Source: Planctomycetota bacterium
GTDB taxonomy: Bacteria > Planctomycetota > GCA-002687715 > DRQF01
Length of the DNA: 11,980 nucleotides
Assembly: GCA_036479435.1 (NCBI GenBank)
Contig: JAZGFI010000274.1
Coordinates: forward strand, 1 to 11,980
Direction: 5' to 3'
The first letter of the stretch is position 1. Each line of letters starts with the position of its first letter. The notes beneath the pieces are model-generated. The model was not told the DNA's origin and searched no databases. It worked only from the letters and a program-made list of their open reading frames with translations. This document shows positions 3 to 11,421 of the stretch, piece after piece. Made by a program: the position numbers and the translations under genes.

Positions 3-2885
3 CTTCCCCGCCTGCAACTTTTGCATCCAGCTTGCGATGGCCGCGTCCGCGCCGACCGATTTCAACTTAGCGAGCGCATCGATGCAGGGGGCCGCCTCCG
101 CCGGATCACCGCGGCCGATGGCCTCCAATAGCAAGGGAAGGGCTAATTTTGGTTCGGCCTGCGCCAAGAGCCCGGCGGCGTGGGCGCGTAAGCGAGCTTG
201 GTCTGAACGCAGACAAAGGGCGGCGACGTCTTTGAAACGCTTAGAATTCAGATCAAACAATGCCTTCAGGGCCGTTCTTCTCAAACCCAAATCTGTGGTC
301 TTGTCGGTCGCCCAGGCGGCAAGGGTTTTAGAGGCTTGTTGCCATCCAAAGCGGCCAGCAGTTTGAGCAACGTGTTGGCGCCACTTGATCGACTTACCCT
401 GGAATAAGGCCTCGCGGTGGGGGGCCAAGGCTTTGGCGGCGTCGGCTTGGTCTCGCTTTGGACGTGGTGCGTGCATATTCAGGACGCGGTCGTTGGGGTG
501 GCTTGGCGTCCAATCGTAGAGCGCGTTGAGGGCTTCTAGACGCAAGTCTTCGTTGACATCTTGGCTCGCCGCAAAGGCCGCGAGCTTCGCGCAGTCTTCG
601 CTGCGACTGAGGAGATCCGCCGCTCCAATGACACGGCGGGCGAAGGCGGGGTTCTTCATTGCCGGTGCATCGAAGAGAGCGGCGAGAGTGGGAAGCTCGG
701 ATTGGATTGGGACATCGTAGATCGCACGGGCCGCTTCAACGACGAGGCGTTCCGAGCCATCTTTTAGAAACCAACGGACGCGAGAGTCTTTGAGGCGCCG
801 CAGGCTTAGAAGAGCTACGAGGCGTAGGGGCTCCGAGTCGGATTCAGCGAGCTCTGCGAGGCGGTCGGCGTCGCCGATGCCGCTTAAGCCCATGATGACA
901 GCGTGGCGGAGGTAAAGATCGCGATCGTCATTGCGTCGCGCTAAGGCGCTCAAGTCGTCAAAAGTCTCGGCGAGTTTGAGTTTGAGTTTGCCCGCCGCCA
1001 GGGCAGTGAAGAACTGAAGGCGTGGCGCGGCACTCTGCATTAGGGCGACCTGGATGGTCGCGAGTGCCGATTCGCCACCGCGGGCTTCGGCTAAGACTCG
1101 GGCCGCCTGGGCCGCGACCTCGGCATCGACATCGGCGAGGAGTGTGGCCAAGAACTCGGCGTGGCCGGCACTTTTTCGGGCGAGCTGGCCCAAGCCCCAG
1201 ATGGCGTGAAGGCGTTGCAACCTCGGGAGGCTCTTCTGGCTGGCGGTTTGGCGAAAGATCTCGGCCCCGGCCGGGCCCTGACTCGCCAAGGCGAACTGAG
1301 AACGTTGTCTTACTTCACGGTTGGGGTGGGCGAGCAAGTTCGTCAGACGCTCGTTCTCAAACGTCTTGAAGTCGAGCCTCAGCAAGCTCGCCGCCTCTTT
1401 GGCCGCGGGTTCCGCGAGCGCTTCTTCTGAAGCCAACCGGTAGATCCGACCTTTGCCGCAACCCGCCCAAGTCGCGACCCAGTCGCACATGTAAAGGGCC
1501 CCGTCGGGACCAAAGGCGATGTCGGTCGGCAAGGTGCCCTTCAAAAACCAATCGTCGGCCACGAAACTGAATCCGGCCCCGTTCTCCTTCAAGCGAAAAG
1601 AGCGGATGCCGCTCCCGCTCGCGCCGCCCAAAAAGTCACAAAGGAAAAAGCAGCCGCGGTACTTAGTTGGCATGCCGGTGCCGCGATCAAACTCGAGCCC
1701 CGACGGCCCATGACCGAGGTGTGCGATCGGCGGGATGAGGAACAAGCCTTCGTTTTTGTCGCGGGTCTGCCACCAGCCTTCCCTTACCCAGGGGCCGCGG
1801 CGGGGTTTGTACTGAAAGTTCATGCGCCAGCCGGTGATACCGCCCTCGACGACGTAGACCAGGCGAGCTTTGTCGTCGCTGTCGCTGTTGTTGTCACAGG
1901 TGATGAGGTTGCCGAAATCGTCAAAGACGAGGTCTTGAGGGTTTCGAAGTCCGGTGGCGAAGATCTCTAGCTGACTGCCGTCTGGCTCGCAGCGAAAAAC
2001 GGCGCCCGACCCGGGGTCGAAAAATTTCTTACCTTCCGCCGAGACGAAGTTGTAGCCGCGGTCGCCAATCGAAAAGTAGACGCGACCGCAAGGCCCGCGG
2101 CGAAGGCCGTGGAGGTCGTGACCGAAAAGGGCGTAGCGGACGCCGAAGCCGTTTTGGATTGAGCGTTTTTTCTCGGCGATGCCGTCGCCGTCGGCGTCCT
2201 CCAATTCCCAAAGGTGGGGAATGTTGGTGAACCAGACTTTGTCGTCGACCACCAAGACGTCGGTGCCGGGGCCGTCCACGATGGCGTTGAAACCGGTCGC
2301 AAACACGGTGTCTTTGTCTACGATGCCGTCGCCGTCGCTGTCGACGAGCTGGCGGACGCGATCAGAGCCCCATTGGAACTTCTCGGCGTACTCCGGGTGG
2401 TGTTTTAGGACGTAGCGTTCACGATCGGCGACGGATTGGGCGGCGACGTCGTCGTTTTCCCAGTAGGTGTGGTCGCGGTTGTCTTCGCCGCCGCCGTCGA
2501 CGCGTCGAAAGCACTCGGCAATGTAAAAGCGGCCGAAGCGATCAATGGCCATGCCGACGGGATTCGCGAGTCGGGGTTCGGCCGCGACGAGTTTGACTTT
2601 GATGTTGCGATCGACCTTGAATCCCGCGATGGCCTTTTCGCCCTCGTCGGACGCGGGTTCAATCCAGGGCACCCAGGCTTTGCGACGGTCACGGCCATCT
2701 TCCCTAAGGTAGCTCTTGTTTGCGCTTGGAGTAGATATCTTAGTAGAGGCTTTGGCAACATTCGAATTTGTCTGGCTGGCCGTTGGCGCAACCCGTTGGG
2801 CGGGTTCACAAGCGGTCCCAAACAGCAGTGAGCCCAGCCAAGTGCAGGCCCAAAGGAAAGCAGTATTGGAAGGGGCGCTGAACAT
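3..2885 (-). CDS. PVC-type membrane-bound dehydrogenase domain protein (beta-propeller plus HEAT-like repeats; family usually ends in a CxxCH cytochrome c domain), probable lipoprotein, 3' end outside the window
   Basis: Hand translation from ATG 2885 (GAGGA upstream): MFSAPSNTAFLWACTWLGSLLFGTAC (lipobox-like)...KLVAAEPRLANPVGMAIDRFGRFYIAE...DSDGDGIVDK...DADGDGIAEK...GHDLHGLRRGPCGRVYFSIGDRG...GLRNPQDLVFDDFGNLITCDNNSD...GPSG...PTDIAFGPDGALYMCDW, then Ala/Leu-rich helical repeats. The same frame reads ...ADAAIASWMQKLQAGK at the window edge. The ORF track lists no closed ORF in this frame, consistent with no internal stop. CxxCH itself is not visible. Confidence 0.9.
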   Translation of the reverse strand, partial: MFSAPSNTAFLWACTWLGSLLFGTACEPAQRVAPTASQTNSNVAKASTKISTPSANKSYLREDGRDRRKAWVPWIEPASDEGEKAIAGFKVDRNIKVKLVAAEPRLANPVGMAIDRFGRFYIAECFRRVDGGGEDNRDHTYWENDDVAAQSVADRERYVLKHHPEYAEKFQWGSDRVRQLVDSDGDGIVDKDTVFATGFNAIVDGPGTDVLVVDDKVWFTNIPHLWELEDADGDGIAEKKRSIQNGFGVRYALFGHDLHGLRRGPCGRVYFSIGDRGYNFVSAEGKKFFDPGSGAVFRCEPDGSQLEIFATGLRNPQDLVFDDFGNLITCDNNSDSDDKARLVYVVEGGITGWRMNFQYKPRRGPWVREGWWQTRDKNEGLFLIPPIAHLGHGPSGLEFDRGTGMPTKYRGCFFLCDFLGGASGSGIRSFRLKENGAGFSFVADDWFLKGTLPTDIAFGPDGALYMCDWVATWAGCGKGRIYRLASEEALAEPAAKEAASLLRLDFKTFENERLTNLLAHPNREVRQRSQFALASQGPAGAEIFRQTASQKSLPRLQRLHAIWGLGQLARKSAGHAEFLATLLADVDAEVAAQAARVLAEARGGESALATIQVALMQSAAPRLQFFTALAAGKLKLKLAETFDDLSALARRNDDRDLYLRHAVIMGLSGIGDADRLAELAESDSEPLRLVALLSLRRLKDSRVRWFLKDGSERLVVEAARAIYDVPIQSELPTLAALFDAPAMKNPAFARRVIGAADLLSRSEDCAKLAAFAASQDVNEDLRLEALNALYDWTPSHPNDRVLNMHAPRPKRDQADAAKALAPHREALFQGKSIKWRQHVAQTAGRFGWQQASKTLAAWATDKTTDLGLRRTALKALFDLNSKRFKDVAALCLRSDQARLRAHAAGLLAQAEPKLALPLLLEAIGRGDPAEAAPCIDALAKLKSVGADAAIASWMQKLQAGK

Positions 2886-2992
2886 GTCGATCCTCGTTGA
2901 GCGGCGGCTGGAGCTTGCGCTGGATTATGACCGATGCGACTCCCGCGTCAACGCGGGGCGAACGCTAGTGCGTGGGAACAGGAGTGAACGAA

Positions 2993-4010
2993 ATGCCCCT
3001 TGAACGCCATCTTTATCTGGGTGTCGATTTGGGGACCCAGGGGCTGAAAGCGGTCGTCTTTGATGCCCAGATCAAAGAAGTCATCGCCGATGCCCGTGCT
3101 CCCTACAGGTTACTTGAGTCCCAAGATCCTCGCGTGGCCGAGCAATGGCCCTCGAGCTGGGGAAATGCCCTTCGTGATGTGATGCGCGATCTCTTCGCGG
3201 TGCCGGGCGTCGAAGGTAGTCATTGCGCAAGGATTGCCGTGTCGGGTCAACAGCACGGCTTTGTGCCTTTGGACTCAAAGGGGGAGGTCATCCGACCCGC
3301 GAAACTTTGCTGCGACACGGCGAGCGGCGCGGAAGCGGAGGAGCTGATTAGCGGTGGGGGAGGTACCTTCCCGTCGGGTACACGGCTTCGAAAATCTTGT
3401 GGATGAAGCGTCACGAACTCGAGAACTTTCGCCTTTTGCATCAAGTGCTGCTGCCGCATGACTGCTTGAATCAAGAGTGCTACGGGATTCCCGAGGGCCT
3501 ACGCGCCGCGACCGGCGGTGGCAACAACATGATGGCGGCGATCGGCGCGGGGGCCACGCGAGGCGGCGTGGCGGTGCTGAGTTTGAGGACTTCGGGCACG
3601 ATCTTCGCCCGGCGCGATCGACCCTGTGAGGATTCGTGGGGGCTGATCGCGGACTTTATTGATGCAACGGGGGCTTGGTTGTCACTTTGTTGTGTGATGA
3701 ACGCGACTTCAGTCAGTGAAACCCTGGGAGCCTTGCTTCAATCGCAGGCCGAGGCGCATCAAGTGGTGGACCCTGCGTCCTTGGCCGAGGTCGCCTCGCG
3801 GGTCGAGCCGGGTAGCGAAGGACTGCTCTTGATGTCTTTTTTGCGCGGCGAGGATCTGAGTTGAGTTGCGACGCCTACGCGCAGTTGGCGGTCAAGATCG
3901 CCGCCGATTGCGTCGAGATCGACGAGGGACGCGCACGACAATACGCACCGCTCCGCGACCGCTACGCACGGGCTCTCGATGAACTCTATTTTGGCGTCGA
4001 GCCTTTTTGA
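2993..4010 (+). pseudogene. xylB: Degraded xylulokinase (FGGY carbohydrate kinase)
   Basis: AGGAG RBS and ATG 2993. Motifs YLGVDLGTQGLK, VSGQQHG, RPAKLCCDT (family KLWCDT). One-base frameshift near 3377-3379 restores GYTASKILWMKRHE. LLPHDCLN is joined almost directly to GIPEG..GGGNNMM (internal deletion; family GGGDN). SLRTSGT (family SLGTSGT). Premature TGA at 3862-3864. Probable residual C-terminal pieces in other frames (VELRRLRAVGG 3860-3892; VKIAADCVEIDE...RYARALDELY...TGA 3891-4010), so the 3' boundary is less certain. Confidence 0.85.
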
Positions 4011-5053
4011 CGGTTGGCGACCGCGAGGGTACGAGGCCAACTCGATACCAAGGGTTGGCCCAAGACGGTGGGCCATCCTGCTTTGGGGTGGGCCTTGATC
4101 TTTTTCAGCAGGGCTTGCTGCCGCGGCGACAAGATGTCGTAGCTGCGGGGATCGGAGACCTTGCCATTGAGTTTTGCGGCCTGAGCTTCGGTCATCGGAA
4201 GTTTCGCGAGCGGCGTTCTTGAGGCGTAGTACTTGCTGTCTTTGACGCGCCGGACTTGCATTTTGTTTCCAGCGTGAAGCTGCTTGCCGAAGTACTTGGC
4301 CGCGACTTTTCTTTCGGCCGTTGAGCCGGGAAAGGCTCGATCGGCGCAGCGTTTGTTTTTCGATTCGCGTGCGAGAGTCTCGTAGTTGACGACCTTAGGG
4401 TCGTAGCGCATGACCACGACTTCGTGGCTTCCGAGCCAACCCGAGTAGGTGTTGACGACACCCTTAATGAGACCGAACCCGGCCTCGCCTACCCAATATC
4501 AGCTCATCCCAAAAATGGCGGTATCCACGCCGCGCTTGAGGGTAGCCGCTTCGGCGGCGGTGAACTGGAACCACTTTGGAATGGTTCGGTCGCTCTTTTT
4601 GAGCGCGGCTTGCATCGTGGACCAAAGGCCGGCGCGGCTGAAGTCCTTGCTGTGACGAGGGACGAGGTCTTGGCCGTTTTGGTCGACGATGCGGATGACC
4701 GGGTAATTCCAGGTCGGTTCTTTGAAGCTCTTCAGAACCTGCGCATCGTGGCCGCCGCTGACGTTGTTGTAGATGCAGGCCGGAGTAAACAAAGACTCGG
4801 CGGCCTCGACGATGAGAGGGTGACTCAAAACTTGAGTCCCGTAATCACCGCATGTCTTTCAGCCGGGGACCTCTTGGAAGAGGAGCAAGATCGGCTTGCC
4901 GGTTTGGGCGGAGACCTTTTTGGCCTCTTCGAAGTTACGCAACCATTTGACCTGGCCGAGTTCTTTGGGCTGGGTTTTGCTTTGCGCGTCACCGGGTATG
5001 GCGCAAGAACCGATGGCCACAATCGCAAAAGCGAAAATGATGAGTTGCTTCAT
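3986..5053 (-). CDS. Exported thioredoxin-like plus MsrA-like selenoprotein with two Sec residues (U65, U185), 355 aa; resembles the VPGUxxT-family thioredoxin-like (seleno)proteins
   Basis: Track ORFs 4859-5053, 4499-4828 and 3986-4417 share one frame. The gaps translate without other stops: LLFQEVPG-TGA(4861-4859)-KTCGDYGTQVLSHP and DTAIFGMS-TGA(4501-4499)-YWVGEAGFGLIKGVVNTYSGWLGSHEVVVMRYDP. The real stop is TAG at 3988-3986. N-terminal signal peptide with possible lipobox (IVAIGSC17). Confidence 0.9.
4469..4486 (-). promoter_or_regulatory. Putative bacterial SECIS element for the second UGA (U185)
   Basis: mRNA GAGGCCG-GGUU-CGGUCUC: 7-bp stem with one G-U pair and a G-led loop. The stem starts 12 nt and the loop 19 nt after the UGA. 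Confidence 0.75.
4819..4840 (-). promoter_or_regulatory. Putative bacterial SECIS element for the first UGA (U65)
   Basis: mRNA GG-GACUCAA-GUU-UUGAGUC-A-CC: perfect 7-bp stem extendable over a bulged A. The loop starts with G and begins 27 nt after the UGA, fitting the bacterial SECIS model (G at the loop start, loop about 16-37 nt from UGA). Confidence 0.75.
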
Positions 5054-5205
5054 GTCGTCTGCGTGGCTCCCATCGCGAGTCTTGGAGTCGAAGGCGCCCC
5101 CGGTGATGAAGCCTTAGTGTGCCTTATTGGCGCAGCGTCCTCAATTCCGTCTCCGATGGGCGATCTGGTAGGATCAGCGCTCTTAGAGTTGATGCGAGAA
5201 CCGTC

Positions 5206-6492
5206 ATGACGCCGAACAATCCCGAACTATTGACTCCAGCCTCGCGCCGGGGATTTCTTAAGACCGGCGCCTTGTTGTCCGGTGCCGCCCTCAGCCTGCC
5301 GCTGGGGATATCCGGGGCTTTCGCTCGCGGGTCGGACACCCTAAGGATCGGGCTGGTTGGTTGCGGCGGTCGCGGAACGGGAGCCGCGAATGATTGCATG
5401 ACGGCTGATCCCGGGATCAAGCTCGTCGCGATGGGAGATGTCTTCCGAGACCGTCTCGACGCAAGCCGCAAGCACCTATCTTCCATCAATGCGAGTCAGG
5501 TCGACGTGGCCGATGACAAGTGCTTTGTGGGCTTTGATGCCTACCAAAAGGTCATTGCCTGCGATGTCGACTTAGTCTTGTTCGCAACCCCGCCGGCTTT
5601 CCGCTCCTTGCACCTCGAAGCCGCAATCGAAGCGGGCAAGCATGTGTTTGCAGAAAAGCCTGTAGCGGTTGACCCGGTGACGGCGCGCCGCGTCATGAAG
5701 GCGGCGATTCGGGCGAAGGAGCAAAACCTCTCGATCGTTTCGGGTACTCAGCGACGGCACGAGAGCAGTTATCTTGAGACGATGAAACGCATCGAAGACG
5801 GTGCGATCGGCGATGTCGTTTCGGCGCAGTGCTACTGGAATCAAGGCGGGTTGTGGTGTCACGAGCGAAAATCGCACTACTCCGACGTTGAGTGGCAGAT
5901 CCGAAACTGGCTTTACTTCGCCTGGCTGTCAGGGGATCACATCGTCGAGCAGCACATTCACAACATTGATGTCGTCAACTGGGCGATGGGCGGGCCACCC
6001 GAAAAAGCGATCGGACTCGGTGGTCGTCAGGTTCGGACCGACCCCAAATACGGCCACATCTTCGACCACTTCGCGATCGAGTACCAGTACGAAAGCGGCG
6101 CCCGTGCGCACAGCTATTGCCGTCAGCAAGATGGCGCCAAGGGCGAGGTTTCTGAACGCCTCGTTGGCACCAAGGGGACTTCAAATCCGAACGGCGCGAT
6201 CTACGGGGCCCAGGCCTGGAAGTTCTCGCGCAAAAAGCGCAACAACCCCTACGTCCAAGAACACATCGATTTGATAGCGGGCATTCGCGAGGGCAATCCG
6301 CTCAACGAAGGCCAACGTGTGGCCGAGTCCACCCTCACGGCGATCATGGGTCGCATCGCCGCTTACACCGGCAAACAAGTCACCTGGGAGCACATGACCC
6401 AAAGCAAACTCTCCCTCGTCCCCGACCTCACCCAGTTCGGCGACCTCCCCGTTCCCGCCATCCCTATGCCCGGAAAAACCCCCCTCGAATAG
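5206..6492 (+). CDS. Tat-exported Gfo/Idh/MocA family oxidoreductase (428 aa)
   Basis: Twin-arginine signal SRRGFLK, Rossmann motif IGLVGCGGRGTGA, ATPPAFR, GKHVFAEKPVAVD, GTQRRH, WLSGDHIVEQHIHNID. ATG 5206 is preferred over the track start 5119 because it places the Tat motif near the N-terminus. Confidence 0.93.
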   Translation: MTPNNPELLTPASRRGFLKTGALLSGAALSLPLGISGAFARGSDTLRIGLVGCGGRGTGAANDCMTADPGIKLVAMGDVFRDRLDASRKHLSSINASQVDVADDKCFVGFDAYQKVIACDVDLVLFATPPAFRSLHLEAAIEAGKHVFAEKPVAVDPVTARRVMKAAIRAKEQNLSIVSGTQRRHESSYLETMKRIEDGAIGDVVSAQCYWNQGGLWCHERKSHYSDVEWQIRNWLYFAWLSGDHIVEQHIHNIDVVNWAMGGPPEKAIGLGGRQVRTDPKYGHIFDHFAIEYQYESGARAHSYCRQQDGAKGEVSERLVGTKGTSNPNGAIYGAQAWKFSRKKRNNPYVQEHIDLIAGIREGNPLNEGQRVAESTLTAIMGRIAAYTGKQVTWEHMTQSKLSLVPDLTQFGDLPVPAIPMPGKTPLE

Positions 6493-6532
6493 TCAAACCC
6501 GCAAGGTTCGCGTCAGACGATTTTCACTACCC

Positions 6533-6584
6533 TCTCCTCCATAGATGACCGTCGCAAGCTCGCTGGGGAGGGCGGTGGAGGAGA
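6533..6584. terminator. Inverted repeat between convergent genes, possible bidirectional terminator
   Basis: TCTCCTCCA (6533-6541) and TGGAGGAGA (6576-6584) are perfect 9-bp arms lying between the stops at 6492 (+) and 6620 (-). Large loop and no clear U-tract. Confidence 0.35.
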
Positions 6585-6619
6585 CGTCAAGGTGAGTGAG
6601 TCAGGCCGTCGTGCTGTTT

Positions 6620-7255
6620 TTACCAGACGCTTGAATTTCGCCGCAGGCAAATACTGCCGTAGTATTGGCGATGGTTGTTGATTCCGACGATGGTGAGATC
6701 GGGGTTTGAGGCGAGGAGTTCGTGCACCGCTTGAATGACTCCCTCGTGTCCGGAGTCGTAGTCGTCCGCGACGATGATGCCGCCGGGGGCGAGGTGGGGG
6801 AGATAACGCGCGAAGTCTTTTTTTACGGCTTCGTAGGAGTGATCTCCGTCAACGTGAAGCATCGCGAGTGGGCCTTGCCAACTAAACGCCTGTGAATCGG
6901 TCCGAACCGTGCGGATGAAAGAGCCGAGACCGTAGTCTTCGAATCTCCGAGTGGCTTCCTCCAGCGTATCGAAAGTCTGGCCCCAAGATGGGGTCCCGGT
7001 GAACAGGTCGATCGTCGTGATCTCTTCGAAGCCCTTGTCGCGGCAAGCCATCGCCAAGAACACGGTTGAGCAGCCCTTGAAGCACCCGATCTCCAGTACG
7101 GAACCGAGGCGCGGGTCGGCATAGGCCAGCGCCGATTCGTAGAGGAATTTCATGCGGACTGCGTCCTGCATGTCATCCATTGAAGGCAGTTCAAAATCGA
7201 GAGCATCTCTTATGGACGCCAAATCTGCCGCTGGGTCGGAATGGATCGTGTTCAT
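6620..7255 (-). CDS. Class I SAM-dependent methyltransferase (Methyltransf_24-like), 211 aa
   Basis: VLEIGCFKGCST, TIDLFTG, MLHVDGDHSYEAVKKD, LAPGGIIVADDY. GGAGGG RBS precedes ATG 7255. Confidence 0.88.
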   Translation of the reverse strand: MNTIHSDPAADLASIRDALDFELPSMDDMQDAVRMKFLYESALAYADPRLGSVLEIGCFKGCSTVFLAMACRDKGFEEITTIDLFTGTPSWGQTFDTLEEATRRFEDYGLGSFIRTVRTDSQAFSWQGPLAMLHVDGDHSYEAVKKDFARYLPHLAPGGIIVADDYDSGHEGVIQAVHELLASNPDLTIVGINNHRQYYGSICLRRNSSVW

Positions 7256-7394
7256 GCTCAAAAGTCCCTCCGAGGTCGTTATCGACCAAGAATCTGGCAA
7301 AAGCTGAGCATCCTTGCTTCGGATTGAGAATACTGCCGGTGGCTCGGGATTGATCGTCACGGGTTGCGACAATCGAGGTCAAGCAAGGAACATC

Positions 7395-8240
7395 ATGGCC
7401 GACACGCTGGAAGTGGGCATCTCCACCTGCCCTAACGACACATTCGCCTTTTGCGGTCTGCTGAATGGCGCCATTACGGTGCCGGGTGTCGAGTTGAGCT
7501 TCGAATTGATGGACGTCCAGGCTCTGAACGAGGCGATGCGGGCGGGGCGCTTTGATCTGGTGAAGGCGAGTTTTGCGGCGGCGCTTCCCTGCGCTGCGGA
7601 CTACTACGTCATGCCCACCGGAGCGGCTTTGGGCCACGGAGTGGGGCCGGTGCTCTTGTCGCGAGCAAGGGGTGACGGCCAGGAGCTGCCGCCGTTAAGT
7701 GCCGCTCGAATCTTGGTCCCAGGAGCGGGAACTACCGCGGCCTTTTTACTTCGCCTCTTTCACCCGGAAGCAACGCCTGCAGATTCCGTCGTTTTCTCAG
7801 AGATCTTGCCAGCCTTGCAGAACGCTGAGACTGACTATGGAGTCTGCATTCACGAGGGCCGATTCACCTACAAAGCGCTTGGCTTGAGTTTGATCGAGGA
7901 TTTAGGGGAGAGCTGGCGGCAGCGAACAGGACTGCCTCTGCCTTTGGGTGGGATTTTTGGCCGGAACTCGATCGATGTCGAGCTCCTGCGTGCCTTCGGC
8001 CGAGCCCTCAAAGAATCTATCGACTACGCTCGATCCCATCCAGTTGAGGCCGAAACGATGATGTCGGCGCAGGCCCAAGAATTGGACCCGCCGGCGCTTT
8101 GGAAACACGTTGAGCTTTATGTCAATGAGAACACGCGCGACCTCGGCCGCTCAGGACGTCATGCCCTGCAGGTATTTGCCACCGAAGCGCAGTCCGATGC
8201 CTTGCTGACGGCACCAGGGCCATTCCAGTTTCTGGATTAA
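7395..8240 (+). CDS. mqnD: 1,4-dihydroxy-6-naphthoate synthase (futalosine menaquinone pathway)
   Basis: GISTCPNDTFAF, DVQALNE, GAALGHGVGP, PGAGTTA, CIHEGRFTY, DLGESW..TGLPLPLGG, HVELYVNE. AAGGAA RBS before ATG 7395. Confidence 0.93.
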   Translation: MADTLEVGISTCPNDTFAFCGLLNGAITVPGVELSFELMDVQALNEAMRAGRFDLVKASFAAALPCAADYYVMPTGAALGHGVGPVLLSRARGDGQELPPLSAARILVPGAGTTAAFLLRLFHPEATPADSVVFSEILPALQNAETDYGVCIHEGRFTYKALGLSLIEDLGESWRQRTGLPLPLGGIFGRNSIDVELLRAFGRALKESIDYARSHPVEAETMMSAQAQELDPPALWKHVELYVNENTRDLGRSGRHALQVFATEAQSDALLTAPGPFQFLD

Positions 8241-8264
8241 GACCACCTATAGTGGCAGGACCAC

Positions 8265-8981
8265 TTAGCCTGCGGGCACCAAAGTCGTTGCCGCATTCAA
8301 CATGATCTGAACTTGAGACGGTCGTCCCCAGACCACCAAGATGTCGTTTTCGGCGAGAACCGTTGTGCCCTTCGGAGGGAAGTGTAGGTCCAGTCCCTCT
8401 CGTTCGAGGGCGACAAAAGAAAGCTCGCTGGCTTCTTCGGCCCCGCAGGACTTAAGAGTTCTCCCAATAAGTCTGGAGCCCTTTGAGACGACAATTTCCG
8501 CGAGCGCCACATCCTCGTCCGGATTTGCCGATCGCGAAAGAAGGTCTGCCACGCGGGGGTTCGCGATGGCATTGACCGTGTCGATGCCAGCGCTGCGGTC
8601 GGGCACGATCACGGTGCGTGCTCCCGCTTTTCGCATCTTCCCGAGCTGATCTTCCCGAGCGGCCCGCGCTACGATTTCTAGGTGGGGGTTGAGCGCGTGA
8701 GCACTGAGGCAAGTTGCAATCGCGATTTCAAAGTCTTCCATGGCAACGACCAGGTGTGAGGCGCGAAAGGCCCCCGCCGTTACGAGGAGATCGTCCTCGG
8801 ATTCGACACCGCATACGGTGGTAAACCCTCGGTGCTTTGCTTCGGCGCAACGCTCCGGGCAACGCTCGAGAATCACGACCTCTCGCAGGGTCATGGCGAG
8901 CTGTTTCGCGATGACGCGGCCATACTCGCTGAATCCAGCGATGATCACGTGGTTTTGATAGGTCTCGATTGACTGGGTCAT
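8265..8981 (-). CDS. Stand-alone RCK protein (TrkA-N plus TrkA-C) with no transmembrane pore
   Basis: NHVIIAGFSEYGRVIA (degenerate GxGxxG), ALNPHLEIVARA, KMRKAGARTVIVP, C-terminal GSRLIGRTL...PPKGTTVLAENDILVVWG. GGAG lies 7 nt before the ATG. Confidence 0.85.
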   Translation of the reverse strand: MTQSIETYQNHVIIAGFSEYGRVIAKQLAMTLREVVILERCPERCAEAKHRGFTTVCGVESEDDLLVTAGAFRASHLVVAMEDFEIAIATCLSAHALNPHLEIVARAAREDQLGKMRKAGARTVIVPDRSAGIDTVNAIANPRVADLLSRSANPDEDVALAEIVVSKGSRLIGRTLKSCGAEEASELSFVALEREGLDLHFPPKGTTVLAENDILVVWGRPSQVQIMLNAATTLVPAG

Positions 8982-8996
8982 TTCATGGCTCCGAGT

Positions 8997-9689
8997 TTAG
9001 GAGGTTCCGGCCAGAAGTGGCTCAGCTAGGAACCTCTCGGCAGCGACAAGCGCTGGATCGACGTCTGCAGTCTTTAGGATGTCGTCTTGGTCGGCTGCTC
9101 TTACCAAGACCAAAAGGCCTTGGGTCGAGATGGGGGCCACATCTATGCAGTGGCCCTTGTCAGTAAATTGTAGGCGCGGGAAGACGTTGCCACCCGCAAG
9201 CCGAAAGAGATTTGCGCTCTCGGCGTAGGCTTCGCGCAAGTGTCGAGTCAAATTCGGATCGCTGATGCTATCCGCCGGATAGTGAAGTCTCGATTGACCG
9301 GTTTCATCTAGGATGTACACCGAGTCACACTTTGACCTCACGATCAGTTCTTCAAGCACACTACGTGTTCGATCAACTTCATCGCTCATTCGACAAAGCT
9401 CCAAGACCACAACATCCGTGGCCATGCCCAGTTGATCTTCAAGCGCGGAACTGTCGGCTTCGAACCAACAGTTTTCGCGCCCGTGCACTTGCATCGCGAC
9501 AATTGCTGGCAGCCCAGTTTGGGAGCCGATCTCCGCGTCGCAGATTTTTCCTTTGCGAAGGTGGATGATTCCGATCTCCTCGCCGCAGTCGACATTCAAT
9601 CGTCCGTCGGTCGACCCGATCGCCATCATTTGGATGACCTGCGTGAGGACCAGCTCGCCAAAATCTCCGCTGACTGTGAAGTTCGCCAT
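8997..9689 (-). CDS. DUF4388 (PatA-N-like) domain fused to an MglB-like roadblock/LC7 domain
   Basis: N-terminus SGDFGELVLTQVIQMM...DGRLNV...GIIHLRKGKICDAE follows the DUF4388 pattern. C-terminus SVLEELIVRSKCDSVYILDETGQ...LFRLAGGNVFP...GLLVLV resembles MglB by eye. Confidence 0.75.
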   Translation of the reverse strand: MANFTVSGDFGELVLTQVIQMMAIGSTDGRLNVDCGEEIGIIHLRKGKICDAEIGSQTGLPAIVAMQVHGRENCWFEADSSALEDQLGMATDVVVLELCRMSDEVDRTRSVLEELIVRSKCDSVYILDETGQSRLHYPADSISDPNLTRHLREAYAESANLFRLAGGNVFPRLQFTDKGHCIDVAPISTQGLLVLVRAADQDDILKTADVDPALVAAERFLAEPLLAGTS

Positions 9690-9695
9690 GATTCG

Positions 9696-10388
9696 TCAGT
9701 CCTTCGGTGATCGAAGGAACGTGGCCACGGCTTCGGCCGCATGCTCTGGGATGCCCTTGCCGCGAAAGGTCAAGGCCATCGCAGAACCCTGTTGCGCGAA
9801 CGACACCAAAACTGACAGCCGGCCCATTCGAATGGCGACTTGCCCCGTCGGAGTATCCGGGCTTTGTGTTTTCTTCCAAGTGGCAACGGTGCGTGCTAGA
9901 GCCTCGCCGTAGATCTCGGACACGCGATCTTGCCTGCGATCGTAGCCTTCGAGAATCGTCCCGTCTTGACCAATGAGGATTCCAGAGCTTGAGTGAAGTC
10001 GCGCGGCCAACTCGGAGAACGCGGTTCGGCTCTTTGGCGGGAACTCTTGTTCTTTCGGCTCGCGGTTCTTCTTCGAGCTTTGCGGCAAAGACTGTGCCGT
10101 ATCTAGGTTGATGTCTTTGCGTTTCTCTAAGAGAGCGATGGCATCGGGATCGCCACGCAGGTGGTCAAATAAGTCGATTGCCTCGAAACCCTGCAGACAT
10201 TTGGTCATCGTCCCGACCGAGTCGGCGGCGATAAGTCGTCTGCGCTCAAGGAAGGAGAGAAAGCTCTCAGCGGGTAGCGCTTCTTGCTTCCAGATCGCTT
10301 CCGCGAGTTCCACTTGTTGAAGGGTCAATAGACCCCGATCCGACAAGAAGAAGACGAGCTCGTCGCTGGAAATGCTGATGTTGACCAA
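9696..10388 (-). CDS. Hypothetical protein: N-terminal helical domain (GspE/PilB-N-like), polar linker, C-terminal roadblock/LC7-like domain
   Basis: Frame is open from 10448. TTG 10388 after AAGGG is the likely start (ATG 10433 is an alternative). FLSDRGLLTLQQVELA...FLERRRLI helical pattern; SGILIGQDGTILE...GQVAIRMGRLSVLV...MALTF roadblock pattern. Lies 6 nt upstream of the DUF4388 gene. Confidence 0.6.
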   Translation of the reverse strand: MVNISISSDELVFFLSDRGLLTLQQVELAEAIWKQEALPAESFLSFLERRRLIAADSVGTMTKCLQGFEAIDLFDHLRGDPDAIALLEKRKDINLDTAQSLPQSSKKNREPKEQEFPPKSRTAFSELAARLHSSSGILIGQDGTILEGYDRRQDRVSEIYGEALARTVATWKKTQSPDTPTGQVAIRMGRLSVLVSFAQQGSAMALTFRGKGIPEHAAEAVATFLRSPKD

Positions 10389-10510
10389 CTTTTCGCCCTT
10401 CGTGTGGTCGCGCGCCCATCGCCGCGACTGCATGTTTATTTTCGGCAAAAGGCGAAAGAAAACCTGACAAGAAATGTGCCAAAGTTCTTGGTCCGCCCTA
10501 GACGATAAAG

Positions 10511-10540
10511 GACACGGAACCGTGTCTTGAGACTTACGTT
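10511..10540 (+). promoter_or_regulatory. ECF-sigma-type promoter (GGAAC-N16-CGTT) overlapped by a 7-2-7 palindrome
   Basis: GGAAC 10516-10520, 16-nt spacer, CGTT 10537-10540, 30-45 nt before the parA-like start. Palindrome GACACGG-AA-CCGTGTC at 10511-10526. Confidence 0.5.
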
Positions 10541-10584
10541 GCGCCGATCTTGATGACGTCTGGCGCCGGATGGGAAATCACAAA

Positions 10585-11421
10585 ATGGCCAAGCCCTATA
10601 CGCTCGCGATATCCAGCCATAAGGGCGGATTCGGTCGTACGCTCAGCGCCGCCGCTCTCGCCGTCAGCTTGGGGCGCAACGGGATGACCGTCGCCATTCT
10701 TGATGTGACCAGGACCAAAGATCTACAGGAGATCGCCGCACGAGTCGAATGGGAGAACGTCGTTCTGATGGGCGATGAAGGCCTAGGCATGACGCCGGAC
10801 TACGTCATTGTCGACTGTCCTCACTTATCCGAGCCCGACGCCGTCTCAGTCCTCTCTTATGCTGACGGCGCACTCATCACTTGTCCGCCAGAGCGGTCGG
10901 CGACGGTGACGATCTCGACGGCAGTCAAAGCGTTGTTGCGCGCGCAGAGCGAGAATCCAGGTCTTGAGATCCTGGGGATCTGCCTGACTTCTTTTCGAGA
11001 AGAAAGCTCGCGGCAGCAAGGTGTTCTTGAGGAGCTATCTGAGCTGCACCCGGGATTGATGCTTGAGGCTGTCGTACCGGCCGACACGGCATTTTCGAAA
11101 TGGGCCCTGAGGCCGTCCCGCCCTCCGGTCGATGGCGCAGCGTTTCAGGCCTATGCGAAGCTTGCAGAGCACATCGAGACTCGACGCCAACACCTTTTGA
11201 GCAACCCTGCGCCTAGTGGGCTGGAAGAACTCGTCGCTGCCATCGCGCGTGAAGACGCCGCGGACGCGAGCGAACGACAGCTTGTCGATGACATCAACTG
11301 GTGCGAGCTGTGCGGCGGGAGCATTCCGCGCAAGTTCGTGCGCAACGGTAAGGCGAGGCGAAACGCCAAAGGTCAATTGAGTTGTGCCAAGTGCCTCGGA
11401 CAACCGGTAGGCGTCAACTAA
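10585..11421 (+). CDS. ParA/MinD-family protein with degenerate Walker A and a C-terminal Cys4 zinc-finger-like domain
   Basis: LAISSHKGGFGRT (canonical KGGxGKT/S), DYVIVDCP, YADGALI, LEILGICLT, AFQAYAKLAEHI; tail WCELCGGSIP...LSCAKC. Start is ATG 10585 or 10570. Confidence 0.82.
   Translation: MAKPYTLAISSHKGGFGRTLSAAALAVSLGRNGMTVAILDVTRTKDLQEIAARVEWENVVLMGDEGLGMTPDYVIVDCPHLSEPDAVSVLSYADGALITCPPERSATVTISTAVKALLRAQSENPGLEILGICLTSFREESSRQQGVLEELSELHPGLMLEAVVPADTAFSKWALRPSRPPVDGAAFQAYAKLAEHIETRRQHLLSNPAPSGLEELVAAIAREDAADASERQLVDDINWCELCGGSIPRKFVRNGKARRNAKGQLSCAKCLGQPVGVN

Follow-up and report, generated by a model that had tools for sequence, protein, structure and literature searches.

The window analysed here, a whole stretch of 11,980 nt from a Planctomycetota bacterium (contig JAZGFI010000274.1, assembly GCA_036479435.1), carries on its minus strand a gene for a thioredoxin-like protein of family NF041383 with two in-frame TGA codons, both of which very likely encode selenocysteine (Sec, U). 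The whole gene occupies positions 3986-5053 (-). Read from 5053 to 3986 with TGA translated as U, the frame comprises 355 codons, contains exactly two TGA codons and ends in TAG. Under translation table 11 it is cut into same-frame open reading frames (ORFs) at 4859-5053, 4499-4828, and 3986-4417 (64, 109, and 143 aa, respectively). An earlier note on this DNA had read these three pieces as a single 355-aa gene without giving its strand; re-reading of the frame upholds that assignment and places it on the minus strand. The first codon (TGA1; 4859-4861, -) becomes Sec65 in QEVPG-U-KT-C, the attacking position of a UxxC motif and a site already catalogued as Sec for NF041383. The second (TGA2; 4499-4501, -) becomes Sec185 in TAIFGMS-U-YWVGE, at the Sec/Cys16 position of Clostridium oremlandii methionine sulfoxide reductase A (MsrA); this second site is absent from the family's entry in a 2026 catalogue of prokaryotic selenoproteins (PMC13188914). 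A 261-aa ORF antisense to the gene (4424-5209, +) is a probable shadow ORF and might lead gene callers astray. A search of positions 3800-5300 found neither a sigma-70-like promoter nor a terminator-like site on the minus strand.

Assembly or sequencing error at the TGA codons was ruled out by identical letters in contigs from two other studies, which show zero differences at both codons. One of these (X2) covers the whole stretch and is possibly the source of the window DNA, so that it is not surely independent; the other (X4) consists of two pieces that include both codons. A look for expression turned up no RNA data set, and the runs X8 and X9 span 165 bases that include neither TGA. Database fragments 91-94% identical to the 355-aa protein stop at the same two codons. 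A pseudogene or lesion was rejected too, as TGA2 falls at an invariant Cys position in 17 genomes with an intact frame downstream. With 23 of the 355 codons lying one base or less from TGA, two random nonsense changes would, by our arithmetic, strike residues 65 and 185 about 1 time in 253. This figure, together with the retention of both TGAs in 16 further genomes, bears out the earlier argument that two chance hits on catalytic Cys positions are improbable. The TGA pair is more than chance, because residues 65 and 185 are the sole invariant Cys columns of the protein family (alignment of 111 rows) and both codons are kept in those 16 other genomes.

Against NF041383, the family of VPGUxxT thioredoxin-like (seleno)proteins of type 2, the translated protein reaches 349.4 bits (cut-off 275) and matches profile positions 1-286 of 287, with the family motif present as EVPG-U65-KT-C68 inside a thioredoxin fold. 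The type 1 family, NF041382, is matched by the N-terminal domain alone (137.7 bits, cut-off 350), so the protein is not a member. A homologue search found 593 proteins, and our column counts refer to the 120 listed matches, whose names place them in Planctomycetota, Bacteroidota, Dadabacteria, and Deltaproteobacteria. Cys stands at both residues 65 and 185 in 120/120 of these, and never Trp or Gly. The genome itself (G000; 92% complete) holds a full set of Sec machinery: one contig (C117:33644-36014, -) carries a cluster of selA, tRNA-Sec, and a selD that contains TGA, and selB is located on another. The hairpin of this selD likewise has a G-containing loop. TGA reassignment was rejected. The only one of 44 tRNAs with anticodon TCA is tRNA-Sec, TGA is the most frequent end of long open frames (489/1131), and the long genes of the window are free of internal TGA. 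The expectations of the earlier note for VPGUxxT membership, for Cys or TGA at residues 65 and 185 in homologues, and for selA, selB, selC, and selD in the genome were thus all matched by what was found.

The distribution of the two codons was examined in a sample of 401 genomes of the phylum. A gene scoring above the NF041383 cut-off is present in 39 of these, counting the genome of the window; both codons could be read in 39/39. At sites 1 and 2, respectively, 17 genes have TGA/TGA (UU), 10 have TGA/Cys (UC), 12 have Cys/Cys (CC), and none has Cys/TGA, giving TGA in 27/39 at site 1 and in 17/39 at site 2. The double-TGA form spans nine family codes, and a selA match was found in 16/16 other UU genomes (15 over cut-off, one cut by a contig end). 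A metagenome scan by site-2 pattern returned 22 loci, several of them near-copies; all 17 that reach site 1 have TGA there, and the remaining 5 end earlier. Of 11 loci returned by a search of genome contigs, one is a full-length relative. In another phylum sample, built around a Verrucomicrobia record, the family occurs in 3/301 genomes, all C/C. The DNA-level searches covered these two phylum samples, and we do not claim restriction to Planctomycetota. In a tree computed after masking the Sec sites and the residues that the hairpins encode, site 1 switches several times elsewhere and never among the 17 UU genes. We read the double-Sec form as a lineage-level upgrade of a family that is otherwise U/C or C/C. 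Two UC genes from same-family genomes (L025, L032) still pair 5 and 4 of 7 positions in the site-2 hairpin described below and are possibly reversions from Sec. A divergent member, L103 (genome G020), has an extra Cys in its MsrA-type motif (C-Y-W-D-C-E).

Each TGA is followed by a candidate Sec insertion sequence (SECIS) hairpin. The bacterial SECIS (bSECIS) model calls for a loop of 3-9 nt with G in its two leading positions, a 4-16 bp stem, placement 16-37 nt after UGA, and a minimum free energy of at most -7.5 (PMC13188914). Both candidates fit this model: SECIS 1 (4822-4838, -; GACUCAA-GUU-UUGAGUC) presents its GUU loop 27 nt after UGA (-13.0 kcal/mol, z -1.5), and SECIS 2 (4469-4486, -; GAGGCCG-GGUU-CGGUCUC) presents its loop 19 nt after UGA (-13.5 kcal/mol, z -2.2). 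Taken by themselves, the whole-window folding z-scores are modest (-1.4 to -2.6), and the argument for SECIS elements draws its strength from the difference between TGA and Cys carriers. At site 2, read in 36 loci minus one duplicate and one without domain 2, the 7-bp stem is perfect in 14 of 16 TGA carriers (14 of 17 with L095, described below), with the remaining two pairing 5 and 6 positions, as compared to at most 5 of 7 pairs in 18 Cys carriers and 1-4 of 7 in seven more (0/25 perfect). Across the 16 TGA carriers, 97.3% of cells are paired and two pairs show compensatory change, against 30-58% for slid controls, figures that are inflated by kinship and by the structure being derived from these same sequences. 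The site-1 hairpin is looser: 6/6 pairs form in 13/26 TGA carriers and in 0/9 Cys carriers; in the same fixed register, 6/6 pairs form in 2/17 metagenome loci.

An AlphaFold2 model built from 111 sequences (mean predicted local distance difference test score, pLDDT, 92.2; predicted template modelling score, pTM, 0.88) divides the protein into two folded domains behind an N-terminal hydrophobic segment and ahead of a helical tail. The N-terminal segment (residues ~1-24; 4982-5053, -) has low pLDDT and a best nine-residue hydropathy of 3.4, and a segment of this kind is present in 116/121 family proteins. It is likely an export signal, and Cys17, which is not conserved family-wide, could serve as a lipid anchor. 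The thioredoxin-fold domain (residues 26-157; 4583-4978, -) contains U65-x-x-C68 and WNxP118, the presumed cis-Pro position. It matches Pfam Thioredoxin_7 (31.2 bits, cut-off 27) and, by VIA-align, structures 3f9u (Z 15.4, root-mean-square deviation (rmsd) 2.5, 121 residues aligned) and DsbH (2ju5, Z 13.9). The proposed placement of TGA1 in a thioredoxin-type UxxC motif (U65-K-T-C68) is hence supported by both family and fold.

The second domain is predicted to adopt an MsrA-fold catalytic core (residues 175-278; 4220-4531, -) with both lid loops shortened. Its best Foldseek matches are C. oremlandii MsrA (E 1e-6), and it superposes on E. coli MsrA (2gt3) with Z 11.8 and rmsd 1.7 over 99 residues (profile match E 3e-12). 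The predicted model thus compares well with both the thioredoxin and the MsrA folds, as had been suggested from motifs. The C-terminal helical region (residues 279-350; 4004-4219, -) matches in its first part the unusual helical domain that sets C. oremlandii MsrA apart, given as residues 145-209 (PMC4479559); model residues 175-321 align by VIA-align with residues 6-210 of the 4lwj chain (Z 13.4, rmsd 3.2, 145 aligned). Two residues of the core deserve mention. Glu211 (4421-4423, -) is invariant (120/120 and 34/34 sequences) and aligns with C. oremlandii Glu55. Cys236 (4346-4348, -) stands in the place of MsrA Tyr90, is Cys in 76/120 homologues and in 14/16 double-Sec genes, and is by position a candidate resolving Cys.

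In C. oremlandii MsrA, the sulfoxide side of the substrate is met by Tyr47, Glu55, and Tyr90 and the methyl side by Phe17, Trp18, His137, and Tyr140 (PMC4333827); Glu55 is the essential proton donor, and the reductant is glutaredoxin rather than thioredoxin (PMC4479559). Domain 2 of the window protein retains equivalents of the catalytic residue (U185 for Sec/Cys16), of Phe17 (Y186; F in 116/120), of Trp18 (W187), of Glu55 (E211), and of Tyr140 (Y275, in a register that depends on one profile alignment). Ahead of Glu211, the loop is 5 residues long in 121/121 proteins and thus 13 shorter than its counterpart in C. oremlandii MsrA, so that the Tyr47 loop is deleted. Tyr90 is replaced by Cys236 in 76/120 and by Val in 33, the ten residues before it are deleted, and His137 is not kept, its position being mostly E, Q, D, or R. 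Scores fall below the cut-offs of both TIGR00401 (msrA; 19.3 bits vs 108.1) and Pfam PMSR (PF01625; 20.9 bits vs 23.7). The claim that TGA2 marks an MsrA catalytic position accordingly stands with respect to fold and to the Cys16 column, but enzyme identity is uncertain, with three of seven published active-site residues lost and both scores below cut-off. Domain 2 is MsrA-derived and probably still catalytic, judging from its conserved residues and predicted fold. Activity on methionine sulfoxide is uncertain because Tyr47, Tyr90, and His137 are lost, though the Glu is kept.

Elsewhere, the same genome (contig C170; L068:2624-3550, -) encodes a free-standing C. oremlandii-type Sec-MsrA (GLG-U-FWG) with intact loops. 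It scores 108.3 bits with TIGR00401, barely over the cut-off, and begins with an N-terminal hydrophobic stretch running to LFSC, followed by a long linker. From these features it is possibly exported and may be a candidate in-trans client of the thioredoxin domain. A Cys-type MsrA is also present (contig C201:18675-18881), with the canonical loop ahead of its GH-x-E motif.

Taken together, the gene very likely encodes one 355-residue, probably exported oxidoreductase with Sec at both catalytic positions, and we lean toward a reading in which its thioredoxin domain (U65xxC68) would recycle a Sec-MsrA-derived site (U185) with a probably altered substrate. SelB would decode each UGA via its own SECIS hairpin. 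U185 would then attack an oxidised sulfur substrate with Glu211 protonating, as Glu55 does in C. oremlandii MsrA; with Tyr47, Tyr90, and His137 lost, this substrate may be other than methionine sulfoxide. Either Cys236 would resolve the resulting selenenic acid or U65 would attack it directly; the mixed bond would be released by C68, and a membrane carrier of the DsbD/CcdA type would re-reduce the thioredoxin domain. The genome has a DsbD_TM gene on another contig. As the re-reduction step still requires an outside electron donor, the "self-contained" relay of the earlier note is overstated. C68 is kept in 16/16 aligned UU genes, Cys236 occurs solely alongside C68 (76/76), and both independent losses of C68 are also without Cys236; this co-occurrence and retention lend weak support to a relay. 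There is precedent for both halves of the scheme, as the thioredoxin domain of PilB recycles its Msr domains (PMC12288474), and a Sec-glutaredoxin of C. oremlandii reduces Sec-MsrA, a Sec-to-Sec transfer between separate proteins (PMC4479559). A bolder version, in which the protein would be a natural single-chain selenium-to-selenium relay with its lid loops removed, Tyr90 exchanged for a resolving Cys, and an envelope substrate that is not methionine sulfoxide, is in our view rather less likely than not.

Several observations weigh against this relay or against parts of the case for it. Cys236 is lost alone in 9/120 homologues, and C. oremlandii MsrA is reduced by glutaredoxin, not thioredoxin (PMC4479559). 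The two further MsrA genes of the genome have intact loops, so domain 2 is not needed for the MsrA job. Relatives without an MsrA core exist, which indicates that this thioredoxin domain can serve other partners: L051 has a Sec-thioredoxin domain with the helical region apparently retained, L100 stops after the Sec-thioredoxin domain, and L101 continues from it into a different helical tail. Partial matches with one TGA and no MsrA core number seven in the phylum sample. No ORF cluster is common to more than 4/35 loci within flanks of 1.5-4 kb, the gene and its shadow frames excepted. On the genomic side, 11/12 CC genomes carry selA as well, and a UC genome that is 84% complete gives no match to it. 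The seventeenth carrier of TGA at site 2, L095 (genome G085), pairs 3/7 positions in the shared site-2 register; it has its own shifted 8-bp stem with a GGC loop, which would stem from turnover of the SECIS or from the second Sec having been gained separately. Site 2 needs two changes on the tree, and a single UU origin is not rejected (approximately unbiased (AU) test, p 0.24). We therefore take the confinement of site-2 TGA to genes with TGA at site 1 as inherited rather than repeated, and it is not independent evidence.

The most serious competitor accepts the same double-Sec protein and takes domain 2 to be a working methionine-S-sulfoxide reductase, a selenium counterpart of PilB with one Msr domain in which the thioredoxin domain replaces the lid loops. 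The retained catalytic position, Phe/Tyr186, Trp187, Tyr275, and helical domain would suit such an enzyme, as would Glu211 at the place of the essential acid Glu55, and one Cys homologue (P0075) is named peptide-methionine (S)-S-oxide reductase by NCBI. Nonetheless, two of the three residues facing the sulfoxide oxygen (Tyr47 and Tyr90) and His137 are gone, the loop before Glu211 is short throughout the 121 proteins, the msrA score is 19.3 against 108.1 bits, and intact MsrA genes lie elsewhere in the genome, all of which make this reading unlikely, if still worth serious weight. Both Sec residues could also be real without passing electrons between them, acting in parallel, forming a stable U65-U185 bond, or making up a soft-metal or selenium site, with domain 2 as a substrate-binding or sensing module. 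The relatives with a thioredoxin domain and no MsrA core fit such an arrangement, C68 is absent in 35/120 homologues, leaving just two attacking positions, and the catalogue includes metal-binding double selenoproteins. The invariant catalytic-type Glu and the F/Y-W motif favour MsrA-like chemistry instead, and UxxC is kept in every one of the 16 aligned UU genes; we regard the absence of a relay as improbable.

A far more remote alternative is that TGA2 is a true stop or a lesion, leaving a one-Sec, 184-aa thioredoxin and a separate or dead C-terminal piece, or that the code of this organism reassigns TGA. Gene callers do deposit such pieces, thioredoxin-only relatives exist, and two UGA read-throughs in one gene would reduce yield. 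Against this, a stop at the catalytic residue would split a predicted domain, 17 genomes have TGA2 at an invariant Cys and an unbroken frame behind it, the residue in homologues is Cys and never Trp or Gly, and the covarying site-2 hairpin is absent from Cys carriers. Reassignment is further opposed by the sole TCA-anticodon tRNA being tRNA-Sec and by the long window genes without internal TGA. We therefore consider these explanations very improbable as compared to the double-Sec oxidoreductase.

About 120 bases from the 3' end of the selenoprotein gene, an FGGY-family sugar kinase ends that is spread over two frames (2972-3406 and 3397-3864; overall 2972-3864, +) and is apparently frameshifted and truncated. 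An open-ended gene at 3-2885 (-) encodes 961 aa or more, with an N-terminus that looks like a signal and with repeats rich in Ala and Leu; its product may resemble PVC-type membrane-bound dehydrogenase proteins. Unrelated neighbours on the other side (5119-11421) comprise a Gfo/Idh/MocA oxidoreductase with a twin-arginine-like motif, Methyltransf_24, a menaquinone biosynthesis protein (PF02621), TrkA, DUF4388, an unassigned 250-aa ORF, and a ParA-like ATPase.

In comparison with catalogued selenoproteins, the window protein is a full-length NF041383 match that shares the VPGU motif, the domain order, and the N-terminal hydrophobic segment of the family, and differs in that it and 16 relatives add, at the MsrA-type site, a Sec followed by a hairpin of its own. 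In the 2026 catalogue, Table 1 lists NF041383 as hypothetical protein OS_HP5 with motif VPGU and one Sec, and writes '1~2' Sec for another family (PMC13188914). OS_HP5 is listed without a motif in PMC9312934 and is not named in the main text of PMC1976440; term searches for it returned nothing in the deep-Sep main text (PMC12013277) or in the BSepDB main text and part of its supplement (PMC13326102). Literature searches brought up no paper on the family other than the reviews and BSepDB. The one-Sec entry agrees with the suspicion in the earlier note that the second site may be unannotated. A second Sec for NF041383 does not appear in the published catalogue table, curator comments or database supplements could still mention one, and we consider the site probably unpublished. 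Read through TGA1 alone, the gene scores 216.6 bits against the cut-off of 275; the double form is missed by annotation because one read-through falls below the family cut-off and the gene is left in pieces. The NCBI entry MFT7616456.1, a 70-aa "hypothetical protein", is the first piece of a double-TGA relative.

Two Sec residues in one bacterial protein are less exceptional than had been claimed. By our count, 14/119 prokaryotic families in the catalogue table have 2-3 Sec, some of them domain fusions (PMC13188914), which reduces the rarity to a moderate one. The fusions HUGP/GUXX-star (NF041212), methyltransferase/UXPK-star (NF047649), and arsenite methyltransferase/AhpD (NF041537) have 2-3 Sec in what are, by name, different modules. 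None of the 119 table entries is a thioredoxin and MsrA-fold pair with two Sec, and the MsrA entry has one. With this finding, a catalogued but experimentally uncharacterised family gains a second Sec site that appears to be unrecorded, and single-Sec annotation may likewise mask second sites in other catalogued families. The gene has two candidate SECIS hairpins separated by 360 nt, and its Cys-codon relatives serve as built-in controls.

The closest biochemical relative is the 1-Cys/Sec MsrA of C. oremlandii (4LWJ, 4U66), which is the best structural match to domain 2, helical domain included, has Sec at the same position, and shares the equivalents of Phe17, Trp18, Glu55, and Tyr140. It differs in having the Tyr47 loop L1, the ten residues before Tyr90, Tyr90 itself, and His137, none of which the window protein retains, and in drawing on a separate glutaredoxin where the window protein, probably exported, has a fused domain. 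This match links the second domain of NF041383 to a biochemically studied Sec-MsrA. Neisseria PilB and Fusobacterium MsrAB1 are thioredoxin-MsrA-MsrB fusions fed by DsbD/CcdA (PMC12288474), and as described there PilB is indeed the precedent for a thioredoxin-Msr fusion that had been proposed for it. They share with the window protein a thioredoxin fold ahead of an MsrA fold and a likely envelope location and electron source. In contrast, the window protein has Sec rather than Cys, a thioredoxin domain of the Thioredoxin_7/DsbH-like subfamily, and a Clostridium-type helical domain; its profile match to PilB MsrA chains is weak (E 0.004-0.02), and it has no MsrB domain, the frame ending after the helical region with no MsrB family match. 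If the relay is real, selenium-to-selenium transfer would be present across at least nine planctomycete families, hidden by single read-throughs that score below cut-off. Beside these known systems, the natural C/C, U/C, and U/U versions of one scaffold offer a series with which to ask what favours selenium and if a Sec site depends on a reductant that itself has Sec.

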